Source of the DNA: a bacterium
Lineage (GTDB): Bacteria > Zixibacteria > MSB-5A5 > GN15 > FEB-12
Reading direction: 5' to 3'
DNA length: 64,000 nucleotides
NCBI GenBank assembly: GCA_016708025.1
Contig: JADJGQ010000001.1
Coordinates: 515,153-579,152 of the forward strand
Within the stretch, counting starts at the first letter, position 1; the number at the start of each line of letters is the position of its first letter. Position numbers and translations under genes: made by a program. Positions 5,278-17,184 of the stretch are shown here, piece by piece. The notes beneath the pieces are model-generated. The model was not told where the DNA came from. It ran no database searches and worked only from the letters and a program-made list of their open reading frames with translations.

Positions 5278-5535
5278 ATCGACAGAAGTCCTCCGTCCGA
5301 AAAAAGGAAACCGCTAAGCTATTGCCGGTCAGTTCAAATGTCAACCGAATTCGCCGGCTTACCCAGCCAGGGCGGGAATATGTGAAAAACGCTGCAGGAA
5401 CGACTTTGTGCCCACCCGGGTGTGCATTTCCTGAACAGCGAAAAGACTGGATAAGTCACTGCAAATACGATATGTTTCGCCTGTACTTCAGATTTACTGC
5501 GTAATAGAGATTTCGGGAGAAATCGAGCATTCCGT

Positions 5536-6336
5536 TTGCTCAACAGGGTGTTGGGCAGATACCAAACTATGGAAGACCGCGCACAACACAGATTCGACAT
5601 CCTCAGGCAACTGGCTATTGCCGGTTACCGGGGGGAAGATTTCCGTCCGACCGCCGAAATGGCGCTTCGTCAGGCGGCCGATCTGGTTGGGCTTCAGGCG
5701 GCGGCGCTTTATCTCTGGAACGACTCCCGGGCGATCACTCTGGCGGTTTCTCATGCCGATTCTATCCAGGCACAGGAGACACTGACCTCCCTCGAAGAGA
5801 GCTTATTTGCCGGCCTCCGTAAGGACCGTCAGCTTCTGGCGGCCTACATGAGTTTTGGAGGGAATCCACCGTTTCAGACATTTACGCTTCCGATCCGGTT
5901 TGGGGAATCGATGTTGGGAGCGGTGATCGGGATACAAGAGGGGGACCATCGGCTGGTCTCTGAGGATATGTTTCTTGAGGCGGTTTGTGCGGCATTGTCG
6001 CTATACGTGGTGGCAGGTCAGGCCGGACTGGCGAAAGCCGCGACAAATGACCTGATCGCCAAAGAGCGGTTAGGAGCAGTGCTCCAGACCGCGGTGACAG
6101 TCAATCATGAGATCAACAACCCGCTCACCGCTATTCTGGGCAATATCCAACTGTTGCTGATGAAGCGGAAAGATCTGGATGAAGAGCTGGTCAGCAAACT
6201 AAAGACGGTTGAAGAAGCCGCACTTAAGATCAAGGATGTAACCCAGCGACTCCTCCGCATCACCTCGGCACGTTCTGTAGACTATGCCGAGGGGACCTCG
6301 ATGCTTGATATCTCCGACGATCCCGATTCCAAATAG
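5536..6336 (+). CDS. GAF domain protein with a histidine-kinase DHp (HisKA-like) helix but no catalytic ATPase domain
   Basis: The N-terminal ~160 aa are GAF-like (AALYLWNDSRAITLAV ... LGAVIGIQEG). The H-box VNHEINNPLTAILGNIQLL is followed by about 60 aa and a stop. No N/G1/G2 boxes are present. Start is uncertain (TTG 5536 or ATG 5569). Confidence 0.6.
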   Translation: MLNRVLGRYQTMEDRAQHRFDILRQLAIAGYRGEDFRPTAEMALRQAADLVGLQAAALYLWNDSRAITLAVSHADSIQAQETLTSLEESLFAGLRKDRQLLAAYMSFGGNPPFQTFTLPIRFGESMLGAVIGIQEGDHRLVSEDMFLEAVCAALSLYVVAGQAGLAKAATNDLIAKERLGAVLQTAVTVNHEINNPLTAILGNIQLLLMKRKDLDEELVSKLKTVEEAALKIKDVTQRLLRITSARSVDYAEGTSMLDISDDPDSK

Positions 6337-6337
6337 C

Positions 6338-7078
6338 CTAATTCTTCAGTATCCAGTCCACCAGCGCCTGCATCGCGGCCGGATTATCGTTGATGATATC
6401 GGTGCCGTGGGCATCACCATCAAAGATCATCAGGGTGCAGTGATCCGGATTTAATGACGCCATCTCCCGAACAGATTTGTACGAGTATTCGTCGCTGGAA
6501 GAGGCGACCAGCAGGATCTTTCCTTTGAATGCCATGATCGCATCAGCCGGTTCCAGGCCACGGTAGTTGAGTCCGGGGGAGAGGAGGATCATGCGCTGAA
6601 TTTCGGGCATTTCCTCAGTCAGCAGAGCCGCGGTGTTGGCGCCAATGGATGCGCCGATGAGGATGAGGTTGGAGGTACCTTTCAGGGCGTCTGCAATGTC
6701 AGCTGGATACTTGGCGAATTCGGTCTCCGTCATAGATTCCCAGCTCAGTGTAGCTTCTCCACGCTTGACCGAGCATCCATGGCCGCGCATGTCGAAGATC
6801 CGCCAGGTAGGGAGACTGAAATTTACCGAGTCTGTTCGTTTGCTCAACTCGGTTAGGCTGTCTTTCAGCGGGAAAAAACTATCACGCGTATGCCCCATCA
6901 TCGGCAGGCAGACAAACGTACTGGCGGCTTTTCCGGAACGACCGAAGGTGGTGGAGCAGATGACGAGCGAATCTCGGGCGACCGATTTCATCTCAGTCTG
7001 TGTGACCTTCATCACGGGCGTCTGGGAAAAGCCAACACTGCATGCGATTATGAGAATGATCGCCAAGTACGCTTTCAT
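6338..7078 (-). CDS. Secreted alpha/beta-fold hydrolase
   Basis: Signal peptide MKAYLAIILIIACSVGFSQ. Nucleophile elbow GASIG in LILIGASIGANTAA, with late Asp/His (SSSDEY, DGDAHGTD) consistent with a Ser-Asp-His triad. Confidence 0.65.
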   Translation of the reverse strand: MKAYLAIILIIACSVGFSQTPVMKVTQTEMKSVARDSLVICSTTFGRSGKAASTFVCLPMMGHTRDSFFPLKDSLTELSKRTDSVNFSLPTWRIFDMRGHGCSVKRGEATLSWESMTETEFAKYPADIADALKGTSNLILIGASIGANTAALLTEEMPEIQRMILLSPGLNYRGLEPADAIMAFKGKILLVASSSDEYSYKSVREMASLNPDHCTLMIFDGDAHGTDIINDNPAAMQALVDWILKN

Positions 7079-7160
7079 GTTTCCACCTCAGTCCTTTGTG
7101 GTCACCAAAGAGAAAGCGGCGATCACCAGATCACCGCTTGATTTCAGAACAGATACTCGC

Positions 7161-7757
7161 TTAGAGGTAGGTCTCGGAGACCTCTTTCAGTTTTGCTGAC
7201 AATTCGGTCGCATGAATCTTGTAGTTCTCCATGTCCTTCTTGTCACAACAGTCTTTCATCAGGGCAGCGAGCTTGTACACCCGGGCCAATTCTTTGACCA
7301 TGGCTTCCTGCTGTCCCTTCACTTCTGCTGGAATAGTAGATTCGTTCAATGCCGTGACCTTGGTCACCAGCGTTTCGGTCGAGCCGATGATCCCATCCAT
7401 GTTCTTGTTTGGGATATGCTGTTCGACGATGATCCCGGCGGTCATGATGGCACCCTCCAGTTCAGGGTAGGAGAAGGGAGAGAGCATATGGGCGGTATTT
7501 TCAAATTCTTCGTGAACTGACGGCATGAGCACGTAGCAGGAATCCTTGAGGCCAGCTTTGGCTGCTCCGGCGAAGTCCTTGACCAATTGGGCGAATTTCT
7601 CGCGATGGTTCAGAAAGGCTGCCTTGCGAGCAACGCTCTTCATAGTCGGTTGGATATCGGCGATTCCTTTGAAGAGCGAGTCAAATTTCGGACCGGCGGC
7701 AACCAGTGCATCGAGATCCTTGGCCGGGTAGGCGGAATGCCAGGTAGGAGCCATCAC
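7161..7757 (-). CDS. Hypothetical protein (helical); the N-terminus appears displaced by a frameshift
   Basis: Long ORF with no recognisable motif. The same frame is open upstream only as far as a stop codon, with no good start. A signal-peptide mini-ORF sits at 7780-7890 in another frame (see findings). Confidence 0.45.
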   Translation of the reverse strand: MMAPTWHSAYPAKDLDALVAAGPKFDSLFKGIADIQPTMKSVARKAAFLNHREKFAQLVKDFAGAAKAGLKDSCYVLMPSVHEEFENTAHMLSPFSYPELEGAIMTAGIIVEQHIPNKNMDGIIGSTETLVTKVTALNESTIPAEVKGQQEAMVKELARVYKLAALMKDCCDKKDMENYKIHATELSAKLKEVSETYL

Positions 7758-7915: not shown

Positions 7916-9063
7916 TTAAATAACATTTGTTTCATGAGTTACGTCGGCTCCGGTGAACCGAGTCGGGCTCAATGGCGAGATATCGATGGTCGGCTTTTCG
8001 CCGCACAGGATCTCGGCCGTCACCAGACCGGCCGCCGGGGCGTGCATGAACCCGTGCCCGGAGAACCCGGTGACATGGAACATACCGCCAACCTCGGCAT
8101 CGTGGCCGATGATCGCCTGGTGATCCGGAGTAGTCTCATAGAGACCGGCCCACTGATTAGCGATCTCCGCGGTTTCGAGTTGCGGGATCCGATCGAGTGC
8201 TTTTTCGATGATCGTGTCGACATAGTCTGGGTCAGTGGAGACATCAAATCCCGGCTTTACTGATTTGTCTGCCCAGCCAAGAAGCAGGCCCTTCGATTCC
8301 TTGTGGAAATAGAGCCCGGACTTGACATCGACGACCATCGGGAAGAACGGTTGTACAAAATCAAGTTCGCCGGTGGTGACGCACATCCGTTTGTACGGTT
8401 CGACTTTGACATCAGCTCCTGCAAGCTTTCCGATCTCGCCGGCCCATGCGCCTGCACAGTTGATAACCCAGGGAGTCTGAATTTCGCCTTTGGACGTGCG
8501 AACGGAAGTCAGCTTGTCGCCCGATTTACCAAAACCGGTTACATCGCATTCCAGTTCAACGTCGACCCCCATCTTCCGGATTGCCGACTCATAGCCGCGC
8601 AGAAATTCAGACGGGTCACCAAGACCATCATCATGGCAGAACGTGCCAAGTTGGATATCATCGAGCCGGACATGAGGAGCGTATTGCACTATCTCGCTGG
8701 GCTTGAGCAACTGGACATTGAGGCCGAGGGAACGTTGTAGTTCATAATGCTTGGTATAGGTTTTGACATCAGCATCATCCGACAAGAGGAAGAGGTAGCC
8801 GACCTGGTCAAAGAGAGCTTGGAACCGGTCTCTTCCTTGAAATTGGCAAACATCTTCTCGGAGAGCATCGACATTTCTATATTGGTCTTTGTTGAGAACT
8901 GGGCGCGAATTCCTCCGGCCGCTTTGGTGGTTGAACCAGCGCCAGTGAATGGCTCCTTTTCGACCAAGACGACCTGACCGAATTTCTTCCTGGCAAGATA
9001 GAATGCAACGGCGACTCCGATGATCCCTCCGCCTATTACAACCGCATCTGCTTTAGTCCGCAT
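7916..9063 (-). pseudogene. FAD-dependent oxidoreductase (DAO / sarcosine-oxidase-beta-like family) interrupted by one frameshift
   Basis: ORF 8689-9063 carries the dinucleotide fold DAVVIGGGIIGVAVAFYLA. ORF 7916-8785 continues the DAO family (CAGAWAGEIG, TGFSGHGFMHAPAAG). The frames switch near 8810-8830, where ...FKEETGS abuts ALFDQVGYLFLLSDD in the other frame. Confidence 0.75.
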
Positions 9064-9380
9064 GTCACTACCTCAAACAACAATCGTCGTACGTGAAGAT
9101 TTTCACTAAGGTAGGAAATAGGCGACTATTGTCAAGGGGATTCACCGAGCTTTCGGTGAAGGGGAAAACACAGCTCTCGGAGTTACGGCGTCATGTTGGT
9201 TGTCAGGTTGTCGTTCCAACTTATAGAAAGACAACGAGGTAGTGGGGGTCTGCGAAATACCAAAAGAAGAGAACATGGTAGATTGCAGTCGCTGATAGCC
9301 GAAATGTTGACTTATCTGGCTGGCTATAAGTGTCGAGGTCGACCGTTGCCCATTTTCCAACAATTCTCTACCTTGGCGAC

Positions 9381-11696
9381 ATGTCGACCTACCCCCGACT
9401 GCGAACCGATCTGGTCGCCGTTCCATCGGAAGTGGACGGCAGTACCGTCTATACGGTCAGAGACCCGATCACGGGGCGTTACTTCCGACTTCGCGAGCCG
9501 GAGTACTGGCTGATTCAACAACTTGATGGGGAAACCTCACCCTCGACGATTTCCACCCGCTTTCAAGAGAAGTTCCAGATGAATATTGGCGCCGAGGCGG
9601 TTGAGCAGTTCGTCAAAGCACTCGAGCAGCTCTATTTTCTGGATGACGGTCGCAGTGAAGTTGAGGTCGCCAAGGCGGCACGAGAATCGAAGCGCAAGCA
9701 ATCGCTGGCGGCACGTTTGCTGTTTATCAAAGTGAAGGGGTATGATCCTTCCCAATTCATTGAGCGGTTGTTTCAGTATTATCGGCCTTTCCATCGACCA
9801 CTCTGGTTCTTGCTGCAGTTTGCTGTGATCATGCTGGGCATGTACCTGTTGCGCGCACACTTTTCCAATTTCGCGCTCCGTCTCCCCGAGCTATTTAATA
9901 TTGGCTCGATCGTTACCATCGTGGCCGCCCTGTTTCTGATGATCACGTTGCATGAGTTCGCCCATGCGCTGGTCTGTCGGTATCATGGCGGCAAAGTGCG
10001 GGAGATGGGCCTTTTGCTGATGTACTTTCAGCCCTGTTTTTATTGTGACGTGTCCGATGCCTGGCTTTTCAAAGAGAAGTCGCAGCGACTGGCGGTCACC
10101 TGGGCAGGCCCGTACTTTCAGTTCTTTTTTCTCGCGGTAGCAGTGATCGTCTGGCGAGTGACGGTCCCCGGAACGGGGATCAGCGAGTTTGCCCGGATCT
10201 GTGCGATCGTTTCCTGGGTCAATTTCCTGTTCAATTTTAATCCGCTGATCAAGCTGGATGGGTACTATCTCCTTTCAGACTGGCTCGAGATTCCCAACCT
10301 TCGCCAGCGGTCCTTTGGCTATTTAGGGAATGTGCTGAAACGTCATCTGCTCGGCTGGCCGATAGAGCGTGTGACCGTCACACCGCGACAGCGGAAAATC
10401 TTTCTCATTTACGCGCTGTTGGCGTTTGTTTATTCGGCCGGTCTGATTGTCTACGTCATTTGGCTGGTGGGCGAATTCCTGATCGCAAAATGGGGTGGTA
10501 CCGGATTCCTGTTGTTGGTGGCAGTGCTGGCAGTTATCTTCAAACAGCCGGCGGCCGAGGCCGCCAGAGGGACACGGCAACATCTCATCTATATGAAACG
10601 ACTACTGCACCAACCGATTCGACTGACCATCTACAGCCTACTTCTACTGGCGGTAATATTCGTGGGTGGGTTCGTCAACTTCCCACACCGGGTAGTGGGA
10701 GATGTGGTGGTCCAGCCAATGTCCGAATTCAGCCTTTCCACAAGCAGCGATGGTCTGCTGGAGACATTTCTCCGGCATGGCGGTGCCAATCCAGAGAAAA
10801 AGACCTCGATTCTGAAACTGATCACCCAGGATGTCGGCGCGTTTCCGGTCACCCCCAGAGTGAAAGAGGGGCAGACGGTCAAGATCGGTGACACGCTGGC
10901 GGTCATTGCCTCCAATACGGTGGATAAGGACCTCCAGGGTGCCCGTAGTGACCTGCAGAGGCTCCAGGACCAGTTGACGGTCCTTCGCACACAGCCGAAG
11001 CGGGAGGAGATCGCTGCCGCCCAGGCGGACGTTCGGGCGGCTCAGGCGACCTATGATCAGTCGCTCCGAGATCTCAACCGGATCAAAGAGCTGGCAGAGC
11101 GTGACTTGGTGGCGGCCAACCAGCTTGAGTCAGTCAGATCATCTGCAGATGTCGCCAAGGCCTCGCTGGAGAATAAGAAGTCATATCTGGCGTTGCTCAA
11201 GTCACCGCCGCGCCCGCAGGATGAGGCGATCATCCAGCGGGATATTGAGAAGCAAATGAGCCGGATCGCATTTTTCGAGGCCCAATTGGGAGCCCAGGTG
11301 ATCCTGAGCCCGATTGATGGCTTGGTATCAGTCACTCGCCATTCAGATGCTCTTCTGACGGTTGCTGATAACAATGTGGTCGAGCTTTTGGTGCCGGTGT
11401 CCGATTTCGATCTCAACCTCGTCCAAACGGGTCAACCAGTGCGGGTCAAGGTGCGGTCCTTTCCGGACAGGCTCTTTTACGGGACGGTCGTGCGAGTGCC
11501 CAAGATCTCCAACGAGGAGGGAGTGGCTATGCAATTCCCGGTCGCGGTGGCGGTTTTTAACGCGGCGGGGAGCCTGAATCCCGGCATGACCGGCTATGCG
11601 AAGATCGAAGTGGGGGAACGTACTCTACTGGAACGTGCGATTCGGAAGGCAATGTCGGTCGTGCGTGTGGAATTCTGGTCCTGGTGGCTTTGGTAA
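9381..11696 (+). CDS. Tripartite fusion: PqqD-like (RRE-type) N-domain + M50/site-2-protease-like membrane metalloprotease + HlyD-type periplasmic adaptor
   Basis: The N-terminus DGSTVYTVRDPITGRYFRLREPEYWLIQQLDGETSPSTI..VEQFVKALEQLYFL is PqqD-like. HEFAHALVCRYHGG (nt 9951 onward) and FNFNPLIKLDGYY are the two M50 signatures, set in a polytopic region. The C-terminal ~330 aa have the MFP architecture: a lipoyl-like turn (VKEGQTVKIGDTLAVI), a long coiled coil and a beta-barrel (ILSPIDGLV, VRVKVRSFP). ATG 9381 is preferred over GTG 9330. Confidence 0.8.
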   Translation: MSTYPRLRTDLVAVPSEVDGSTVYTVRDPITGRYFRLREPEYWLIQQLDGETSPSTISTRFQEKFQMNIGAEAVEQFVKALEQLYFLDDGRSEVEVAKAARESKRKQSLAARLLFIKVKGYDPSQFIERLFQYYRPFHRPLWFLLQFAVIMLGMYLLRAHFSNFALRLPELFNIGSIVTIVAALFLMITLHEFAHALVCRYHGGKVREMGLLLMYFQPCFYCDVSDAWLFKEKSQRLAVTWAGPYFQFFFLAVAVIVWRVTVPGTGISEFARICAIVSWVNFLFNFNPLIKLDGYYLLSDWLEIPNLRQRSFGYLGNVLKRHLLGWPIERVTVTPRQRKIFLIYALLAFVYSAGLIVYVIWLVGEFLIAKWGGTGFLLLVAVLAVIFKQPAAEAARGTRQHLIYMKRLLHQPIRLTIYSLLLLAVIFVGGFVNFPHRVVGDVVVQPMSEFSLSTSSDGLLETFLRHGGANPEKKTSILKLITQDVGAFPVTPRVKEGQTVKIGDTLAVIASNTVDKDLQGARSDLQRLQDQLTVLRTQPKREEIAAAQADVRAAQATYDQSLRDLNRIKELAERDLVAANQLESVRSSADVAKASLENKKSYLALLKSPPRPQDEAIIQRDIEKQMSRIAFFEAQLGAQVILSPIDGLVSVTRHSDALLTVADNNVVELLVPVSDFDLNLVQTGQPVRVKVRSFPDRLFYGTVVRVPKISNEEGVAMQFPVAVAVFNAAGSLNPGMTGYAKIEVGERTLLERAIRKAMSVVRVEFWSWWLW

Positions 11697-11889
11697 GCGC
11701 TTTCGGACTGAACTAAGTCGGGGTGTTTCTCGTCCGTGTGATAATCGGAGTTTTTAGGGCGACGATTGGCGTGCGAAACGACTGTGTGTGAAGGGATTAT
11801 CTTTCCCGGATGCGGAAAAGATTTCCAACCGGCTGACAGGTTTTGACAGTGGGGACGGGCAATGTGGAGTGTATCACACTCTATTCCCC

Positions 11890-11917
11890 TTGACGGAATG
11901 CGGCATTCGATTATATT
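11890..11917 (+). promoter_or_regulatory. Sigma70-like promoter candidate for the small peptide gene
   Basis: TTGACG (11890-11895), a 16-nt spacer, then TATATT (11912-11917). It lies about 100 nt upstream of the ATG at 12014. Confidence 0.4.
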
Positions 11918-12013
11918 AAATTCAAAGGCAACTAAAAAAACAGCTGATTTGCACGCATGAAAAACCTCCAACTAGTGGAGGGCTCTTAATAACATGTTAA
12001 AGGAGGTGATTCA

Positions 12014-12091
12014 ATGGTGAATTACAAACTGAACGTTGAAGTCCTCGAGACTCGTATCGCTCCGGCTGGCATCAGCCTCGGCGGCCAGTAA
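12014..12091 (+). CDS. Small peptide, 25 aa (MVNYKLNVEVLETRIAPAGISLGGQ), candidate exported/processed peptide
   Basis: ATG is preceded by AAGGAGGTGA with 5-nt spacing, the strongest SD in the window. It has its own promoter-like element and a terminator hairpin 30 nt after the stop. It lies directly downstream of the PqqD/M50/HlyD fusion gene. It is below the ORF-track length cut-off. Confidence 0.5.
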   Translation: MVNYKLNVEVLETRIAPAGISLGGQ

Positions 12092-12117
12092 TCGTATTGG
12101 TTCGTGAGCATTCGAGC

Positions 12118-15084
12118 TTACCGAAGGGCAGGGTGACCTGCCCTTTGCTTTTGTCCCAAAACTTGTCCCAGCCGCCGAATTTCTGATACCAAGAATCTCA
12201 CCATTCGTTTTTCCTGAAACAACGACCGATCCCGGTCGCATGTAGTACCATCGGCAATCCCCTTTACGATCTGAAGGGCTTGCCGGTAATTCGCATATGC
12301 CTGTTCAATATTCCCATTGCTGGATTCGATCATCCCAAGTAGCGTGATAGCATGGGTATGTTCCGGCATCAGGCCGAATGTGCGGGATTCGTCACGGTTT
12401 TGGATCGCCAAGTTTCGAGCTTTAGCCAAATCACCGCGCTGGAGCATTAGTTCTATAAGGACGTTGATCAGTCGCGGCCGCTCGATGTAGTGGGGGATCT
12501 GTTCGCTCAATTCGGCGAGTCGAGGGAGTAGCTGTTGTGCGTCGTCCAACTGTCCGGCTTCGAGTAGCGCTTCAGCGCGATTGTAAAGGGCGACAAGTAG
12601 ATCAGTCGATTTGCCACATTCTTTTGCCAACGCAGTAGTTTGCTCGTATCTCTGAGGGTCTGGATCGATCCTGCTGCGCAACATCTCCGCGGCGAGTTGC
12701 AGCGGCTTGACATTCTGTGCAATGGCGACACTGAGAGCCGCATGTGTCAGCTCCAGCGCTTGCTCGCGATCATTAAGCATCAAACGATACATCGCTTTGG
12801 TCAACGGGATCTGAACGTTCCACTGCAGGTCCTCGACATGCTGCATAAGAGACTCGATCTTCTCCAGGCACTCCACGAATTCCCTGGGCTTGCCCAGGCG
12901 CATTTGCACCTGGGAAAGCGAGTGCTGGAAAGCGATCTGATGCGGCCGATGGTTCAGTTCGACCGCGAGAGCGAGACCCTGATTCAGAAACTTAAGGGCG
13001 TCGCGCAAATGTCCAGCCTCGAGCAGAACCATAGTTAGGTTCTCAAGATTGTAGAGAATCTCCTTTTGGCTGCCTATTCGCTGATTGATCTCCAGCGATT
13101 CCTGCAATTGCTCGATGCCGCGGTCGTACATGCCACGAAGGTAACTGAGATAGCCGAGATTGTTGAGAGTACGAGCGATCTCGCCGGCATCGCCAAGTTC
13201 CTTCTTGAGTTCGAGAGATTTCTCCAGGAGAAATGTGCCACGTGTAAGGTTGCCGACCAGACAGTAGACTGAGCCCATGTTTGAAAGGGTTGAAGCAACC
13301 TCGGTCGGGGCATTCAGGCGACGCTGTATACGCAAGGCGGAGCGATAGTAGCGAAGGGTGTTCCCCAGGTCTCCGGCGTAGAAGTAGGCGTTACCGATGT
13401 TGTTATAGGTCCTGGAGAGTTCAAACTCCTCGCCCATCTGCTGGTAGATTGTCACTGCCTGGTTGAGGGCGTCGAGGCCGGATTTGGAATCCTGTTTCAT
13501 TTTGTAGAGGTCACCAAGATCGCGATATGTCTCGGCTAGAAGCTTGTCAGGGGAGAGATCGCGATAGAGTGCGACCAGACTCTGATAGGTCGCCAGAGCA
13601 TCGTCAACTTCGCCGGTCTCTTTCTGGATGTCTCCGCGGAGCATCAGCAATTCCCTTACCTGTGCGATTTTGCCGGTAAGGGCGGCAAAGTCCAAAACCG
13701 AGTTGAGGCAGAAGATCGCTTCTTTGGCCCGATGTTCTCCGCGTAAGAGTGAAGCGGCCTGATAGGCACAACGGTCCGCGGATTCAAGGTCTCCTGCCCG
13801 CAAGTAAAGTTGCGTGGCAGAAGCGTGGCGATTTTCGCGCTCAGCCAATGGAGCGGCCCGCAAGGCAAACCTCTTGATGGTTGACGGGCGCAGCAGGGGG
13901 AGAAGCAAGCTGGTGAGCGCATTGGTAGAGTCCGTGTTGGTTGCGGCATCACACACAGCGGTTCGCTTTTCTCGCAGACTTCTCCGGCTGAATTGTTCGA
14001 GTTCAAGTCTCCTGAGGCGGTTAGGCCAATAGACATTTCCGGAAAGTGCCGGACCATTTTCGGTGATCGAGACAATCCCCTTGCGGAAATTCGACTCGAG
14101 AGTCAGTCTCAGGCGAGACGGTGACTTTGCCGTGATCATCTCAAGTTGCCTGGTCTGTTTCGTCGAAAGACCGGGGAGAGAATTCATCATCACCTGATAT
14201 TCTGATGCCGCTTCAAGCAGGTATTTCGGCCGCAATAGCTTCTCAAATGGATAAGTGGCGCCTGCTGCACGCAGCGAGCGGCAGACCGCTAATGCCGTCT
14301 GTGGACGCTGATCGGCTGATTTGCTGAGGAGCGAAGTGACCAGATCGGCCAGCGGTTTCGAGACTGACGGCGCCAATTGATCGAGAGGGAGTGGTTCTTC
14401 CTCGCGGACGCGCGCATTGATCAGCATCGGGTCGGTCTCGGACCCAATGAACGGGTGCTTGCCGGTCAACATCTGGTAGGCGATAACACCGAGCGCAAAC
14501 AGGTCGGAGAGATGACTCGCCCGACTGTCGATGATCGTTTCTGGCGCCATGTAGCCGACTGTCCCGAGGCCAACCCTGACGGTGTCAGGTTCATATTCAT
14601 AACGACCAAGAGAGAAATCCGAGAGCTTGGCAAAAAACAGCTTGTCGGATTTGCATCGGTCAAGTTCGACGGGAAGGAAGATATTCTGCGGTTTCAGGTC
14701 GCCATGGATAATCTTGAGCTGACGCAGATACTCGAGGTCGGCTGCGACTGCGGAAAGCAGATTGAGGGCTAGGGCGAGGTCGGTTATCCGTCCGAGTTGA
14801 TCGAGGGTTTTGCCTTCGCAGATCTCGAGTAACAAGTAGTCGGTGGAATCGTCAGGTCCGTTCAGGATACGAACGAGGCCGGGAAACCGTCGTGTGCCGA
14901 TAAGGGAAAGCTCGCGCGAGGCGAGCAGGTGGAAGTCGATCCCGGGCTCAGGGACCGGGAGCGGGCGTTTCAGGGCGGCTTCGCGTCCGGACGTGCCGAC
15001 GCGAACGCGGAAGACTTCGGCAGTCCCCCCACGGCCGAGCCGCTCCATCAAGTGGAAGCGTGACTCGTCACCGGACTGCTTCAT
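12118..15084 (-). CDS. Ser/Thr protein kinase with a long C-terminal TPR/helical-repeat region
   Basis: Hanks kinase motifs are present: GRGGTAEVF, AALK, IIHGDLKPQNIF, LSDFSLG and GTVGYMAPE. About 650 aa of TPR-like repeats follow (NIGNAYFYAGDL, SNMGSVYCLVGNL, NNLGYLSYLRGMY). Confidence 0.85.
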   Translation of the reverse strand: MKQSGDESRFHLMERLGRGGTAEVFRVRVGTSGREAALKRPLPVPEPGIDFHLLASRELSLIGTRRFPGLVRILNGPDDSTDYLLLEICEGKTLDQLGRITDLALALNLLSAVAADLEYLRQLKIIHGDLKPQNIFLPVELDRCKSDKLFFAKLSDFSLGRYEYEPDTVRVGLGTVGYMAPETIIDSRASHLSDLFALGVIAYQMLTGKHPFIGSETDPMLINARVREEEPLPLDQLAPSVSKPLADLVTSLLSKSADQRPQTALAVCRSLRAAGATYPFEKLLRPKYLLEAASEYQVMMNSLPGLSTKQTRQLEMITAKSPSRLRLTLESNFRKGIVSITENGPALSGNVYWPNRLRRLELEQFSRRSLREKRTAVCDAATNTDSTNALTSLLLPLLRPSTIKRFALRAAPLAERENRHASATQLYLRAGDLESADRCAYQAASLLRGEHRAKEAIFCLNSVLDFAALTGKIAQVRELLMLRGDIQKETGEVDDALATYQSLVALYRDLSPDKLLAETYRDLGDLYKMKQDSKSGLDALNQAVTIYQQMGEEFELSRTYNNIGNAYFYAGDLGNTLRYYRSALRIQRRLNAPTEVASTLSNMGSVYCLVGNLTRGTFLLEKSLELKKELGDAGEIARTLNNLGYLSYLRGMYDRGIEQLQESLEINQRIGSQKEILYNLENLTMVLLEAGHLRDALKFLNQGLALAVELNHRPHQIAFQHSLSQVQMRLGKPREFVECLEKIESLMQHVEDLQWNVQIPLTKAMYRLMLNDREQALELTHAALSVAIAQNVKPLQLAAEMLRSRIDPDPQRYEQTTALAKECGKSTDLLVALYNRAEALLEAGQLDDAQQLLPRLAELSEQIPHYIERPRLINVLIELMLQRGDLAKARNLAIQNRDESRTFGLMPEHTHAITLLGMIESSNGNIEQAYANYRQALQIVKGIADGTTCDRDRSLFQEKRMVRFLVSEIRRLGQVLGQKQRAGHPALR
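12124..12154. terminator. Rho-independent terminator shared by the peptide gene (+) and the convergent kinase gene (-)
   Basis: Perfect 9-bp stem AAGGGCAGG (12124-12132) / CCTGCCCTT (12137-12145) with loop GTGA, followed by TTTGCTTTTGT. It overlaps the last codons of the minus-strand kinase ORF. Confidence 0.55.
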
Positions 15085-15090
15085 TGCCCC

Positions 15091-16923
15091 TTATTTGGCT
15101 TTCCTGGGCTGGACTCGCGGAAGGACCAGCTTGAAGATCGTTCCTTCGCCTTCTTTCGAACTGACGAGCAATTCGCCGCCATGTTGTTCGACGATCTTGC
15201 GGCAGTTGTAGAGGCCGAGTCCATGACCATGCTTTTTGGTCGTGAAATGCAGGTTGAACAGCTTGCCGAGCGTTTCTTCGGTCATCCCGACGCCGTTGTC
15301 GGAGATCTCGATAGAGAGGCGCTCCTGCACGCGGTCATAGCCGGCGCAGATGCTGATCTGACGCTTGAATTCCTTGCCGTCCGACTGATTGCGCACAGCA
15401 TGTTCTTCAATGGCATCCGCGGCGTTGTTTAGCAGGTTCATTAGTACCTGCTGTACCTGACCGACATCGATCTCCACCGACGGGATCTCGGTGGCGAGAT
15501 CGAGCGTGAAGTGGATGAGTTTGAAGCGCGGTTGCACGCGGAGCGAGAAGAGCAGGTCGTCCACCAGGTGGCGGATATCGTAACTGATATATTCCGGCTC
15601 CGGCTTGGAGAAGTCCATCAGGCTGTCGACAAATCGCTTGATCTTAAAAATGTTCTCGGTGATCGACTTGGAGTTGAACTTCACCTTGTCGAACTTCTCG
15701 CGATCGATATTGAGCGAAAGCAGTTCGGCGTTGTTCGAGATGATGGAGAGGTAGTTGTTCAACTCGTGGGCGACCGAGGCGGCCATTTCGCCGCGCGCGA
15801 CCAGCTTCTCAGAGAGAATCACATATTTCTCCATCAGGACTTTCTCGGTGACATCTTCGATCGCCATGTTGATACCATCGGTACCATCTGGCAGCTCGGA
15901 GACCGGCGAGATCTTGATGGAAAGGACTTTCTCCATGTAGCCGGTATTGTGGAAATAGCGCGGGTCGGCGTATTCCTGCTTGGCGGCCAGGGAATCGGTG
16001 ATCATCTTCTTCCAGCGAAGTTGCTCACCCTCGGGGAGACGGTCGACAAAGACCGTCGGGAGGCTGCCTTCGCCTACTACCACCACGCTGTCGCGATTGA
16101 GGTCGAAGATCTCAAGGGCAACCGGGTTGATGGTGGCAATACATCCTTTGGCGTTCAGTACCACGATTCCGGTCGGTGTATTTTTGACCACGGATTCGTG
16201 GTATCTTTTCATCGTGTAAAGGGAGTGGTACATCGCGGCGTTGTGCAACGCGTTGGAGACCAACTGGCCATAGAATTCAAAGAGATAGAGGTCCGACTTG
16301 AGAAACATGCCGGCCTGATTGGTATTATCCACGTAGATGACGCCGATCACCTTGCCCTTGACGGTCAAGGGAACGCACATGATCGAGCGGAGGTGCAACT
16401 CAACGACCGACTGCTGCTGAGCATAGCGGTCATCCTGCAAAGCGTCGGAAGTATAGACCGACTTACCGGTCCGGGCGACCTGGTTGGTGATCGAGGAGGA
16501 GATACGGAAGTCTTCCTCCATCATCTGTTCGCGGCAGAGATTGTAAGCGGACTTGACCTGGAGTTCGCCCTTGTCGTCGAGCAACATGATCAATCCGCGC
16601 TCGGCATGCATCAACTCGATCGCCTGCTGCATAACCATCTGCAGGACGTCATCAAGGTTGAGGGATGCATTGATGGCGAGCGAGACCTGGAGCAGCGCCT
16701 TGAGGTCGGTCATGCGAACGGAGGCGCCATCCGCATCCTGTTCCGCGGAAAGCCGAGGATTATTCTCGGCGACCCGATCCAGCGTTTGTTCCAGTTCATC
16801 GAACAGGTCGACAACAACTTTGCCACTGTCACTCTGGGCAGGAGTCGTCATAGTCATCGTGTTCGAAACCTTGGACGTGACGTACTTGTACGTCTTTTCG
16901 TCTTCATTCTGTTTCATAGTCAT
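15091..16923 (-). CDS. Sensor histidine kinase (GAF-PAS-HisKA-HATPase)
   Basis: GAF region (LIMLLDDKGELQV ... VIGVIYVDNT) and a PAS-like segment. H-box AASVAHELNNYLSIISNNAELL, N-box LLNNAADA, G1 DNGVGM and G2 GHGLGLYNCRKIV. It ends 6 nt before the kinase gene start. ATG 16923 follows AGGAG; GTG 16950 is an alternative. Confidence 0.85.
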   Translation of the reverse strand: MTMKQNEDEKTYKYVTSKVSNTMTMTTPAQSDSGKVVVDLFDELEQTLDRVAENNPRLSAEQDADGASVRMTDLKALLQVSLAINASLNLDDVLQMVMQQAIELMHAERGLIMLLDDKGELQVKSAYNLCREQMMEEDFRISSSITNQVARTGKSVYTSDALQDDRYAQQQSVVELHLRSIMCVPLTVKGKVIGVIYVDNTNQAGMFLKSDLYLFEFYGQLVSNALHNAAMYHSLYTMKRYHESVVKNTPTGIVVLNAKGCIATINPVALEIFDLNRDSVVVVGEGSLPTVFVDRLPEGEQLRWKKMITDSLAAKQEYADPRYFHNTGYMEKVLSIKISPVSELPDGTDGINMAIEDVTEKVLMEKYVILSEKLVARGEMAASVAHELNNYLSIISNNAELLSLNIDREKFDKVKFNSKSITENIFKIKRFVDSLMDFSKPEPEYISYDIRHLVDDLLFSLRVQPRFKLIHFTLDLATEIPSVEIDVGQVQQVLMNLLNNAADAIEEHAVRNQSDGKEFKRQISICAGYDRVQERLSIEISDNGVGMTEETLGKLFNLHFTTKKHGHGLGLYNCRKIVEQHGGELLVSSKEGEGTIFKLVLPRVQPRKAK

Positions 16924-17184
16924 AGCGTTGCAGGCTCCTGTAACTCTCACTTAATATCGGACAAAACCGGAGACTGCTTAATGGGTGGACAGTGACAAAT
17001 TCTGTCCTAAACTATCGTTTCACTTGAACTTTGAGCTATTACGGCCCAGCAGTTTGAATCAGGCTGTACCGGAAAAGCACTTACGCAATCGGAGGATTGT
17101 TGAGGGACGAAACAGAGGGAATACGTCGGGTCGTCGACTTTCAGTTAACTGGCTGTTTTGTATGCGATTAGGGTCGGCCTGCGA

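Follow-up and report, generated by a model that had tools for sequence, protein, structure and literature searches.

Why does a bacterium of the phylum Zixibacteria carry, in a single open frame, a peptide-docking domain, an intramembrane protease and a periplasmic adaptor, and on what substrate would such a protein act? The question is posed by one gene in a 64,000-nucleotide stretch of contig JADJGQ010000001.1 (assembly GCA_016708025.1; this whole stretch is referred to below as the window), which an earlier note, made from the letters alone, had described as a fusion of PqqD-like, M50-protease and HlyD-type modules with a short peptide gene directly behind it. Analysis of the gene, its relatives and its neighbors has led us to propose that the fusion is probably a one-polypeptide device for leader-peptide maturation and export, whose substrate would be the 25-amino acid (aa) peptide encoded downstream. 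The parts of this proposal differ in strength: (i) on the basis of sequence relationships, the fusion very probably binds and cuts the peptide; (ii) a slight preference is given, by analogy, to export of the product by the adaptor part; and (iii) the idea that the product is a signal handled by a neighboring kinase with tetratricopeptide repeats (TPR) is a tentative one, which we put forward with some doubt.

The source genome (3.8 Mb, 6 contigs, 99.6% complete) contains a single copy of the fusion, as judged by a genome-wide search, along with other M50 proteases. The frame is open on the + strand from either a GTG at 9330 or an ATG at 9381 to position 11696. The ATG is the likely start, since homologues of 769-771 aa begin at the same Met. 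The gene and its parts, with the evidence for each, are as follows (TM, transmembrane; MFP, membrane-fusion protein).

9381-11696, + strand: RRE-M50-HlyD fusion gene (P0001), open frame of 771 aa
9393-9644, + strand: RRE/PqqD-like peptide-docking domain, residues 5-88, predicted cytoplasmic (AlphaFold, Foldseek, NCBIfam daptide_HExxH)
9798-10610, + strand: site-2 (M50) intramembrane metalloprotease core with six TM helices, residues 140-410 (Pfam, Foldseek, hydropathy, model)
9951-9965, + strand: HEFAH zinc-binding/catalytic motif, residues 191-195 with H191, E192 and H195 (translation, alignments)
10233-10262, + strand: NFNPLIKLDG, the NxxPxxxLDG motif, residues 285-294, with D293 as third zinc ligand (translation, alignments)
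10614-10676, + strand: seventh TM helix (hydropathy peak at residues 415-433, model helix at 412-430)
10677-11624, + strand: HlyD/MFP adaptor, residues 433-748, lipoyl-like and beta-barrel domains around an alpha-helical hairpin (Pfam, NCBIfam, PDB profile, Foldseek)
10914-11291, + strand: long hairpin helices of the adaptor, residues 512-637 (AlphaFold model)
11625-11693, + strand: C-terminal helix, residues 749-770, ending in the aromatic tail EFWSWW (model, alignment)

Hidden Markov models, two AlphaFold models and Foldseek agree that the fusion joins an N-terminal RRE/PqqD-like fold, a site-2 (M50) protease and a periplasmic adaptor in one chain. The two models, one of the whole protein (mean predicted local distance difference test score, pLDDT, of 83) and one of residues 1-410 (pLDDT 85, predicted template-modeling score, pTM, 0.77), give the same chain order: strands at 12-38, helices at 39-83, two juxtamembrane helices, six TM helices holding both catalytic motifs, the seventh TM helix at 412-430, beta domains around four long helices at 512-637, and the final helix at 749-770.

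The three strands and three helices at the N-terminus have the winged-helix topology of leader-binding RREs. A Foldseek search of the PDB with this part matched the leader-bound lasso-peptide RRE proteins TbiB1 (5v1v, 5v1u) and 6jx3_B with probability 1.00 (target TM-score 0.64-0.68, root-mean-square deviation 3.5-4.5 Å), and CteB more weakly. The Pfam PqqD model (PF05402) reached only 14.8 bits over residues 28-84, under its gathering cut-off of 23.4; one homologue, P0077, has a precomputed match to the same model. The NCBIfam model for the daptide intramembrane metalloprotease (NF041824, daptide_HExxH) aligns to fusion residues 25-388 with 227 bits (cut-off 300).

The protease core is matched by Pfam Peptidase_M50 (PF02163) over residues 180-258 at 35 bits, above the cut-off of 27.2, and by the fold of SpoIVFB (8vjl; Foldseek probability 1.00). 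Alignments of 70 and 40 relatives show no variation at H191, E192, H195, P288, L292 or D293, while N285 is either invariant or conserved to at least 90%. Seven TM segments are evident from hydropathy; with the N-terminus inside, seven helices place the C-terminal part in the periplasm, so that the RRE is predicted to be cytoplasmic and the adaptor periplasmic.

Over that C-terminal part, Pfam HlyD_D23 (30.6 bits, cut-off 30) and HlyD_3 (27.1 bits, cut-off 22.2) match residues 651-736, a weak lipoyl-like Pfam match covers residues 493-509, and the NCBIfam HlyD, EmrA and RND_mfp adaptor models span residues 493-750. Profile search of the PDB retrieved MacA, a HlyD-family MFP (8dck, 7sgr) and EmrA, and Foldseek retrieved MacA/EmrA/MexA with E-values of 4e-15 to 1e-9. 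In the C-terminal helix and its aromatic tail, V763, W766 and S767 are invariant, W768 and W769 nearly so, and VEFWSWW served as a search pattern for the family. To our knowledge, no characterized periplasmic adaptor ends in a tail of this kind, which may re-anchor the adaptor on the membrane or touch the protease. Each of the three domains named in the earlier note is thereby upheld: the M50 signatures HEFAH and NPLIKLDG by translation, invariance, a Pfam score above cut-off and the SpoIVFB-like fold; the membrane-fusion module by Pfam, PDB profile and Foldseek; and the PqqD-like N-terminus by fold and by homology to the daptide peptidase DapP, not by the Pfam model.

The short gene that the note had seen behind the fusion is real. 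It begins 317 nt past the fusion stop, is preceded by a strong ribosome-binding site, AAGGAGGTGA, and occurs once in the source genome.

12014-12091, + strand: precursor peptide gene of 25 codons, with leader at 12014-12064 (17 aa), predicted core at 12065-12088 (AGISLGGQ) and stop at 12089-12091

The leader ends in Ala-Pro and follows the conserved pattern Y.L..E.LE.[RK][IVL]AP; among 33 aligned peptides L6, E9, L11, E12, A16 and P17 are invariant and Y4 is nearly so. The core is 5-17 aa long across relatives and mostly reads xGxSxGGQ, at times with a Trp/Gly-rich tail. The predicted octapeptide AGISLGGQ has a mass of 701.37 Da, and no NCBIfam family matches the peptide.

How widespread is the fusion, and does the peptide travel with it? 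A word-indexed protein search gave more than 1400 matches, of which the best 120 were all full length at 47-99% identity and came mostly from metagenome-assembled genomes of Zixibacteria, a phylum known almost only from such genomes. An exhaustive search of 1.84 billion cluster representatives (50% identity) gave 17,703 matches at E≤0.001, of which 2508 also reached E≤1e-30. The top 150 are mostly proteins of 680-950 aa whose alignment runs from residue 2-5 onward; because these matches are near full length, the three-part architecture is, judged by sequence, that of a large family. It carries generic annotations only: “putative peptide zinc metalloprotease protein,” “HlyD family efflux transporter periplasmic adaptor subunit,” “site-2 protease family protein” and “PqqD family peptide modification chaperone.” Among species-representative genomes at least 563 loci hold a fusion relative, with titles mostly of Zixibacteria/GN15. 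Within the phylum, 135 of 151 sampled genomes contain a full-length orthologue, almost always in single copy and with identity down to 31%. Two genomes of one family also have an adaptor-free paralogue of 423 aa that covers fusion residues 3-368 only, that is, the RRE and M50 parts (G148:C3:97478-98518 and G100:C27:5338-6258); this is the architecture of the daptide peptidase.

The peptide adjoins the fusion at 27 of 29 loci sampled at family level, at 17 of 40 that are more distant and at 58 of 80 from species-representative genomes; in some loci it is unlinked from the fusion, yet still present elsewhere in the same genome. A peptide profile found it in 130 of the 151 genomes. Those 130 carry both genes, 16 carry neither, five carry the fusion alone and none the peptide alone (counts given without a statistical test, as related genomes are not independent). 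Four of the fusion-only genomes were identified: in G064 the gene is cut at a contig end, G139 holds a fragment, in G069 the match lies in two pieces, and in G115 the contig ends just downstream. The 16 joint losses are spread over about ten separate genera. The association between orthologous fusions and a small peptide gene, on which the earlier note had staked its reading, is therefore very strong, and neither of the refuting outcomes named in that note was borne out.

Variant peptides occur both inside and outside the phylum. In one genus inside the family (L020, L021, L104 at 5461-7170, L105 at 5484-6590 and L109 at 5473-6520) 2-7 tandem peptide genes encode the same leader followed by cores such as SRYGAE, SRWGAD and SKYGVD. 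In an Acidobacteria-labelled record (L172, 1578-2830) and in the Gemmatimonadales-labelled L175 (137-540) and L176 (906-1290), 2-4 tandem peptides lie upstream of the fusion, with a leader of the form L.IEELE.RIAP and cores of 30-40 aa rich in Gly, Ser, Asn and Pro; from their sequences, these look like another cargo class for the same machine. Since the same leader carries quite different cores in these records and in the multi-copy genus, the leader is tied to the protease while the cargo varies.

A second constant partner of the peptide lies on the opposite strand.

12118-15084, − strand: Ser/Thr kinase with a long TPR region, 988 aa, cytoplasmic (Pfam Pkinase and TPR, no TM segment)
15091-16950, − strand: GAF-PAS histidine kinase, cytoplasmic, start codon uncertain, upstream of the Ser/Thr kinase on the same strand (Pfam GAF, HisKA, HATPase_c)

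Clustering of flanking open frames placed the TPR kinase downstream, in convergent orientation, at precisely the loci that have the peptide beside the fusion (linked loci being judged for the kinase only where the flank was long enough). Twenty loci have the peptide away from the fusion, at a distance of 21-22 kb in one family and on other contigs in others; in all 20 the convergent kinase directly follows the peptide, and the GAF histidine kinase (cluster c2) stands beside the TPR kinase in most loci. Apart from the multi-copy genus and the Acidobacteria-labelled record L172, the peptide gene is followed, whatever its location, by a convergent TPR Ser/Thr-kinase/GAF histidine-kinase operon, which is a new finding. 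In that genus the TPR kinase was not found and its gene is missing from the locus; in L105 and L109 a GAF-PAS histidine kinase instead converges on, and abuts, the peptide array. A GAF-HD protein occupies the kinase position in L172. In two families in which orthology could be traced at E≤1e-40 (f1 and f4), the kinase was not found in the nine genomes that lack fusion and peptide. Fusion, peptide and kinases are kept together and lost together in nearly every sampled Zixibacteria genome, with kinase loss traced in those two families. Neither kinase has a TM segment or matches a specific named family. A role for the Ser/Thr kinase as a lanthipeptide-type kinase of the core was considered and is not favored: it has no lyase domain, its similarity to LanL is generic (41 bits), and some cores (L043, L074) contain no Ser or Thr.

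These observations have led us to propose a model in which the cytoplasmic RRE would dock the conserved leader through Y4, L6, E9, L11 and E12 and offer the Ala16-Pro17 junction to the active site formed by H191, E192, H195 and D293, where cleavage would occur after Pro17, in the register used by the daptide peptidase after ELExMEAP. The freed octapeptide would leave through the membrane domain into the tunnel of an oligomerized HlyD-like domain, which would in turn dock on one of the TolC-like outer-membrane proteins, at least seven in number, that are encoded elsewhere in the genome. Together with the two convergent kinases, the TPR Ser/Thr kinase and the GAF histidine kinase, the peptide may form a regulatory module, in which the TPR kinase is the best candidate for a reader or modifier of the peptide. 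This sequence of docking, cutting and export is proposed because of the homology to DapP/MpaP and of a leader that shares with the daptide leader L at −7, E at −6, A at −2 and P at −1. A fused adaptor would fit a diderm host, by comparison with the characterized RRE-proteases, which come from monoderm Actinomycetota and Bacillota. Cutting combined with export also has a precedent, since the M50 protease EpeP is thought to cut and also to export its peptide (review PMC10885120).

Several points weigh against this model. No energized pump lies beside the fusion, here or in any relative examined. Known periplasmic adaptors act with an energized inner-membrane pump; export by the fusion alone is accordingly without precedent or energy source. 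Site-2 proteases normally free their products to the cytoplasmic side, and as both kinases are cytoplasmic, an exported peptide would need to be re-imported to reach them. For a secreted secondary metabolite, a core kept throughout a phylum and a single-copy gene present almost everywhere would be out of the ordinary. Finally, covariation gives docking no support: mutual information between leader and fusion (90 fusion-peptide pairs) was not enriched in residues 1-90, which supplied 0-3 of the 20 highest columns (background 83/693), a signal dominated by shared ancestry.

The missing pump is answered most directly by supposing that the fusion docks and cuts only, and that a separate ABC, MFS or RND pump performs the transport, bridged to TolC by the fused adaptor as CvaA bridges CvaB. 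All characterized adaptors need an energized inner-membrane partner (reviewed in PMC8277102), and the genome has five further HlyD-like loci and, outside the window, at least seven TolC-like genes. No such pump is conserved beside the fusion or the peptide in the approximately 140 loci inspected; moreover, the anchor of known adaptors is a single helix, not a six-helix protease able to fill the position of the pump. We regard a separate pump as somewhat unlikely, though the most serious of the competing explanations.

A different use of the same parts would be a regulated-proteolysis switch, in which the peptide acts inside the cell, for example bound to the TPR region of the Ser/Thr kinase, and is destroyed or activated by the fusion, the HlyD-like domain serving as an envelope sensor or scaffold in the manner of the PDZ domains of RseP. 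This would account for the fact that the constant neighbors of the peptide are cytoplasmic signaling proteins, including the GAF-HD protein of the Acidobacteria-labelled record, and for the lack of a pump or ATPase partner nearby; the near-universal, single-copy occurrence resembles that of a housekeeping regulator, site-2 proteases are classic signaling enzymes, and the closest solved fold is that of SpoIVFB. It sits poorly with an adaptor that is complete in lipoyl, hairpin and barrel elements and whose closest matches, MacA, EmrA and HlyD, form tunnels to TolC, and we know of no use of this fold as a sensor. The nearest characterized relative, DapP/MpaP, matures a secreted peptide, and the relatives outside the phylum have tandem peptides whose long, variable cores resemble cargo. 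A switch of this kind is, on balance, unlikely.

The maturation-and-export model can also be pushed to its broadest form: a phylum-wide, self-contained peptide signaling circuit of a novel type in Zixibacteria, in which an ATPase-free protein docks, cuts and carries an unmodified octapeptide over both membranes, the oligomerized fusion would form a protease ring under the adaptor tunnel, the cytoplasmic TPR Ser/Thr kinase, acting with the GAF histidine kinase, reads or modifies the peptide, and the leader-fusion pair serves as a general secretion route in other phyla. In this full extent it is doubtful, and we do not expect all of it to hold.

An antimicrobial system, in the sense of a peptide made by the ribosome and modified after translation (RiPP) or bacteriocin with its exporter, was the frame in which the earlier note had placed the locus. 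The leader-core layout, the RRE, the leader peptidase and the HlyD-type adaptor would all belong there, as would the genus of the family in which 4-7 tandem peptide genes carry variant cores. Yet no modifying enzyme or immunity gene is conserved, the peptide gene is single copy and near-universal, and the core is 8 aa long, Gly/Ser-rich and near-constant as xGxSxGGQ over many families, the opposite of the diversification seen in antimicrobials. The frame fits poorly, and an antimicrobial function is improbable, the worst fit of the main rivals. That assembly or annotation has falsely joined two or three genes can be set aside as next to impossible, as an uninterrupted frame of 767-780 aa recurs in 135 genomes from independent assemblies, closed chromosomes among them.

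If the peptide is a precursor matured by the fusion, how is its own expression set? Four elements surround the gene.

11814-11826, no strand assigned: inverted repeat GGAAAAGATTTCC (GGAAA-N3-TTTCC), candidate regulator-binding site, with half-sites in register in most of 10 aligned relatives
11890-11917, + strand: predicted own promoter of the peptide gene, TTGACG, 16 nt, TATATT (consensus scan)
11965-11981, + strand: stem-loop CCTCC...GGAGG in the 5'-untranslated region, just before the ribosome-binding site (RNA fold)
12122-12147, no strand assigned: GC-rich, terminator-like hairpin where the peptide and kinase genes converge

The CTTGAC and TAT..T columns of the promoter are invariant across 10 relatives, and the inverted repeat, which may be an operator, sits about 65 nt upstream of the −35 box. 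Pairing in the stem-loop is apparently retained despite changes in both arms, as seen by eye in the alignment of 10 relatives, in which the pairs were not formally counted; the element may exert translational control. An Rfam scan of 9000-12300 returned no family.

Further out, the neighbors of the fusion are an M16 peptidase, an amidotransferase, a GAF/HisKA protein, an alpha/beta hydrolase, a hypothetical protein and a DAO-family FAD oxidoreductase; downstream on the opposite strand the two kinases are accompanied by an Omp85 protein. Neither a pump of the ABC, MFS or RND type nor an outer-membrane factor is encoded within about 6 kb of the fusion, and no modifying enzyme is conserved at fusion loci, the daptide genes DapB/C/D/M being absent from the neighborhood; on both counts the earlier note had been right. 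Candidates for a conserved pump partner were sought among recurrent neighbors, which proved to be a CLC channel, TPR proteins, a MutL-like protein, Omp85, a UbiA-family protein and a subtilase, with no ABC, MFS or RND protein. The CLC chloride channel, a CBS-domain protein, is encoded directly upstream of the fusion and in the same orientation in several other families (L057, L058, L059, L060, L074). In the window, the oxidoreductase lies upstream of the fusion.

7916-8785 and 8689-9063 (7916-9063 together), − strand: DAO-family FAD oxidoreductase in two overlapping frames, divergent upstream of the fusion

In the relatives L001 and L002 the same position holds one frame of 382 aa, and the split here is either a frameshift or a sequencing error. 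As a modifying enzyme this gene was rejected: because it adjoins the fusion in only two families of the phylum and is frameshifted in the window, it is read as inherited gene order. In one family (L078-L080, L086) the fusion is 21-22 kb away and the peptide still lies between the DAO gene and the kinase operon, an arrangement that points to an ancestral order of DAO, fusion, peptide and kinase genes from which the fusion gene has departed.

What would follow if the proposed model holds? The locus would provide a first handle on cell-cell or envelope signaling in Zixibacteria, and the short conserved leader could be a portable secretion or processing tag. A literature search found no paper on the fusion, the leader motif or the kinase link.

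By sequence and fold, the fusion belongs to the M50 and HlyD/MFP superfamilies and carries an RRE fold, and it lies outside the daptide, epipeptide and NHLP families, since it scores under their cut-offs and lacks their cluster features. Among characterized proteins its nearest relative is DapP/MpaP, the daptide peptidase, which unites an RRE with a site-2 protease and removes a leader ending in ELExMEAP at −1 (Ren et al., bioRxiv 10.1101/2023.03.08.531785). The two share the N-terminal RRE and the intramembrane protease, homologous over fusion residues 25-388, and a short substrate whose leader ends in ...LE..xAP and is cut after Pro (here by prediction). They differ in that the fusion falls under the daptide family cut-off, that only L, E, A and P of the leader are shared in register, that a 340-aa HlyD-type adaptor is added, and that the cluster contains no DapB/C/D/M genes. 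Daptide cores are hydrophobic helices ending in an invariant Thr and their hosts are Actinomycetota or Bacillota, whereas the core here is an 8-aa Gly-rich segment ending in Gln and the host belongs to a diderm phylum. The view taken in the note, that recognition, cleavage and adaptor functions are separate proteins in characterized systems, holds in part: recognition and cleavage are already fused in the daptide peptidase, so that the RRE-protease is known, and it is the fused adaptor that is new and goes beyond characterized systems.

EpeP/YydH of Bacillus subtilis (NF058609) is likewise an M50 protease that matures a small peptide. The fusion scores only 42.4 bits against its cut-off of 225; EpeP has neither RRE nor adaptor, and it works alongside a radical-SAM epimerase and an ABC transporter, neither of which is found at the fusion locus. 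A parallel of another kind is Eep/RRNPP signaling in Firmicutes, in which an M50 protease yields peptides of 5-8 aa that are read by cytoplasmic TPR proteins; M50 protease, short peptide and TPR protein are common to both systems. The Eep/RRNPP peptides derive from signal peptides or from Sec/ABC-exported precursors, and they are received by transcription factors or phosphatases instead of Ser/Thr kinases.

Residues 433-748 share the fold of MacA, EmrA and HlyD (Foldseek E-values of 4e-15 to 1e-13), including one TM anchor before the periplasmic part. In those adaptors the cytoplasmic N-terminus is a short tail, whereas in the fusion it is the whole RRE-protease; the fusion also has no apparent membrane-proximal domain and no adjacent pump, and it possesses an extra C-terminal helix with its aromatic tail. 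The likeness to the colicin V system CvaAB-TolC and to NHLP exporters is one of overall plan: recognition of a leader, its removal, and passage of the core over two membranes through an adaptor-TolC tunnel, as is proposed here. In CvaAB-TolC and NHLP a C39 cysteine peptidase forms part of an ATP-driven transporter that works with a separate adaptor protein, whereas here a zinc site-2 protease with an RRE has the adaptor fused to it and no ATPase; the NHLP adaptor model TIGR03794 gives the fusion 25.6 bits against a cut-off of 156.2. Two couplings of leader removal to double-membrane export are known, the peptidase-ABC transporter with a separate adaptor and Sec with signal peptidase. The system described here would, if the model is correct, represent a third, and by analogy it resembles the peptidase-ABC/HlyD/TolC route with a site-2 protease in the place of the pump.

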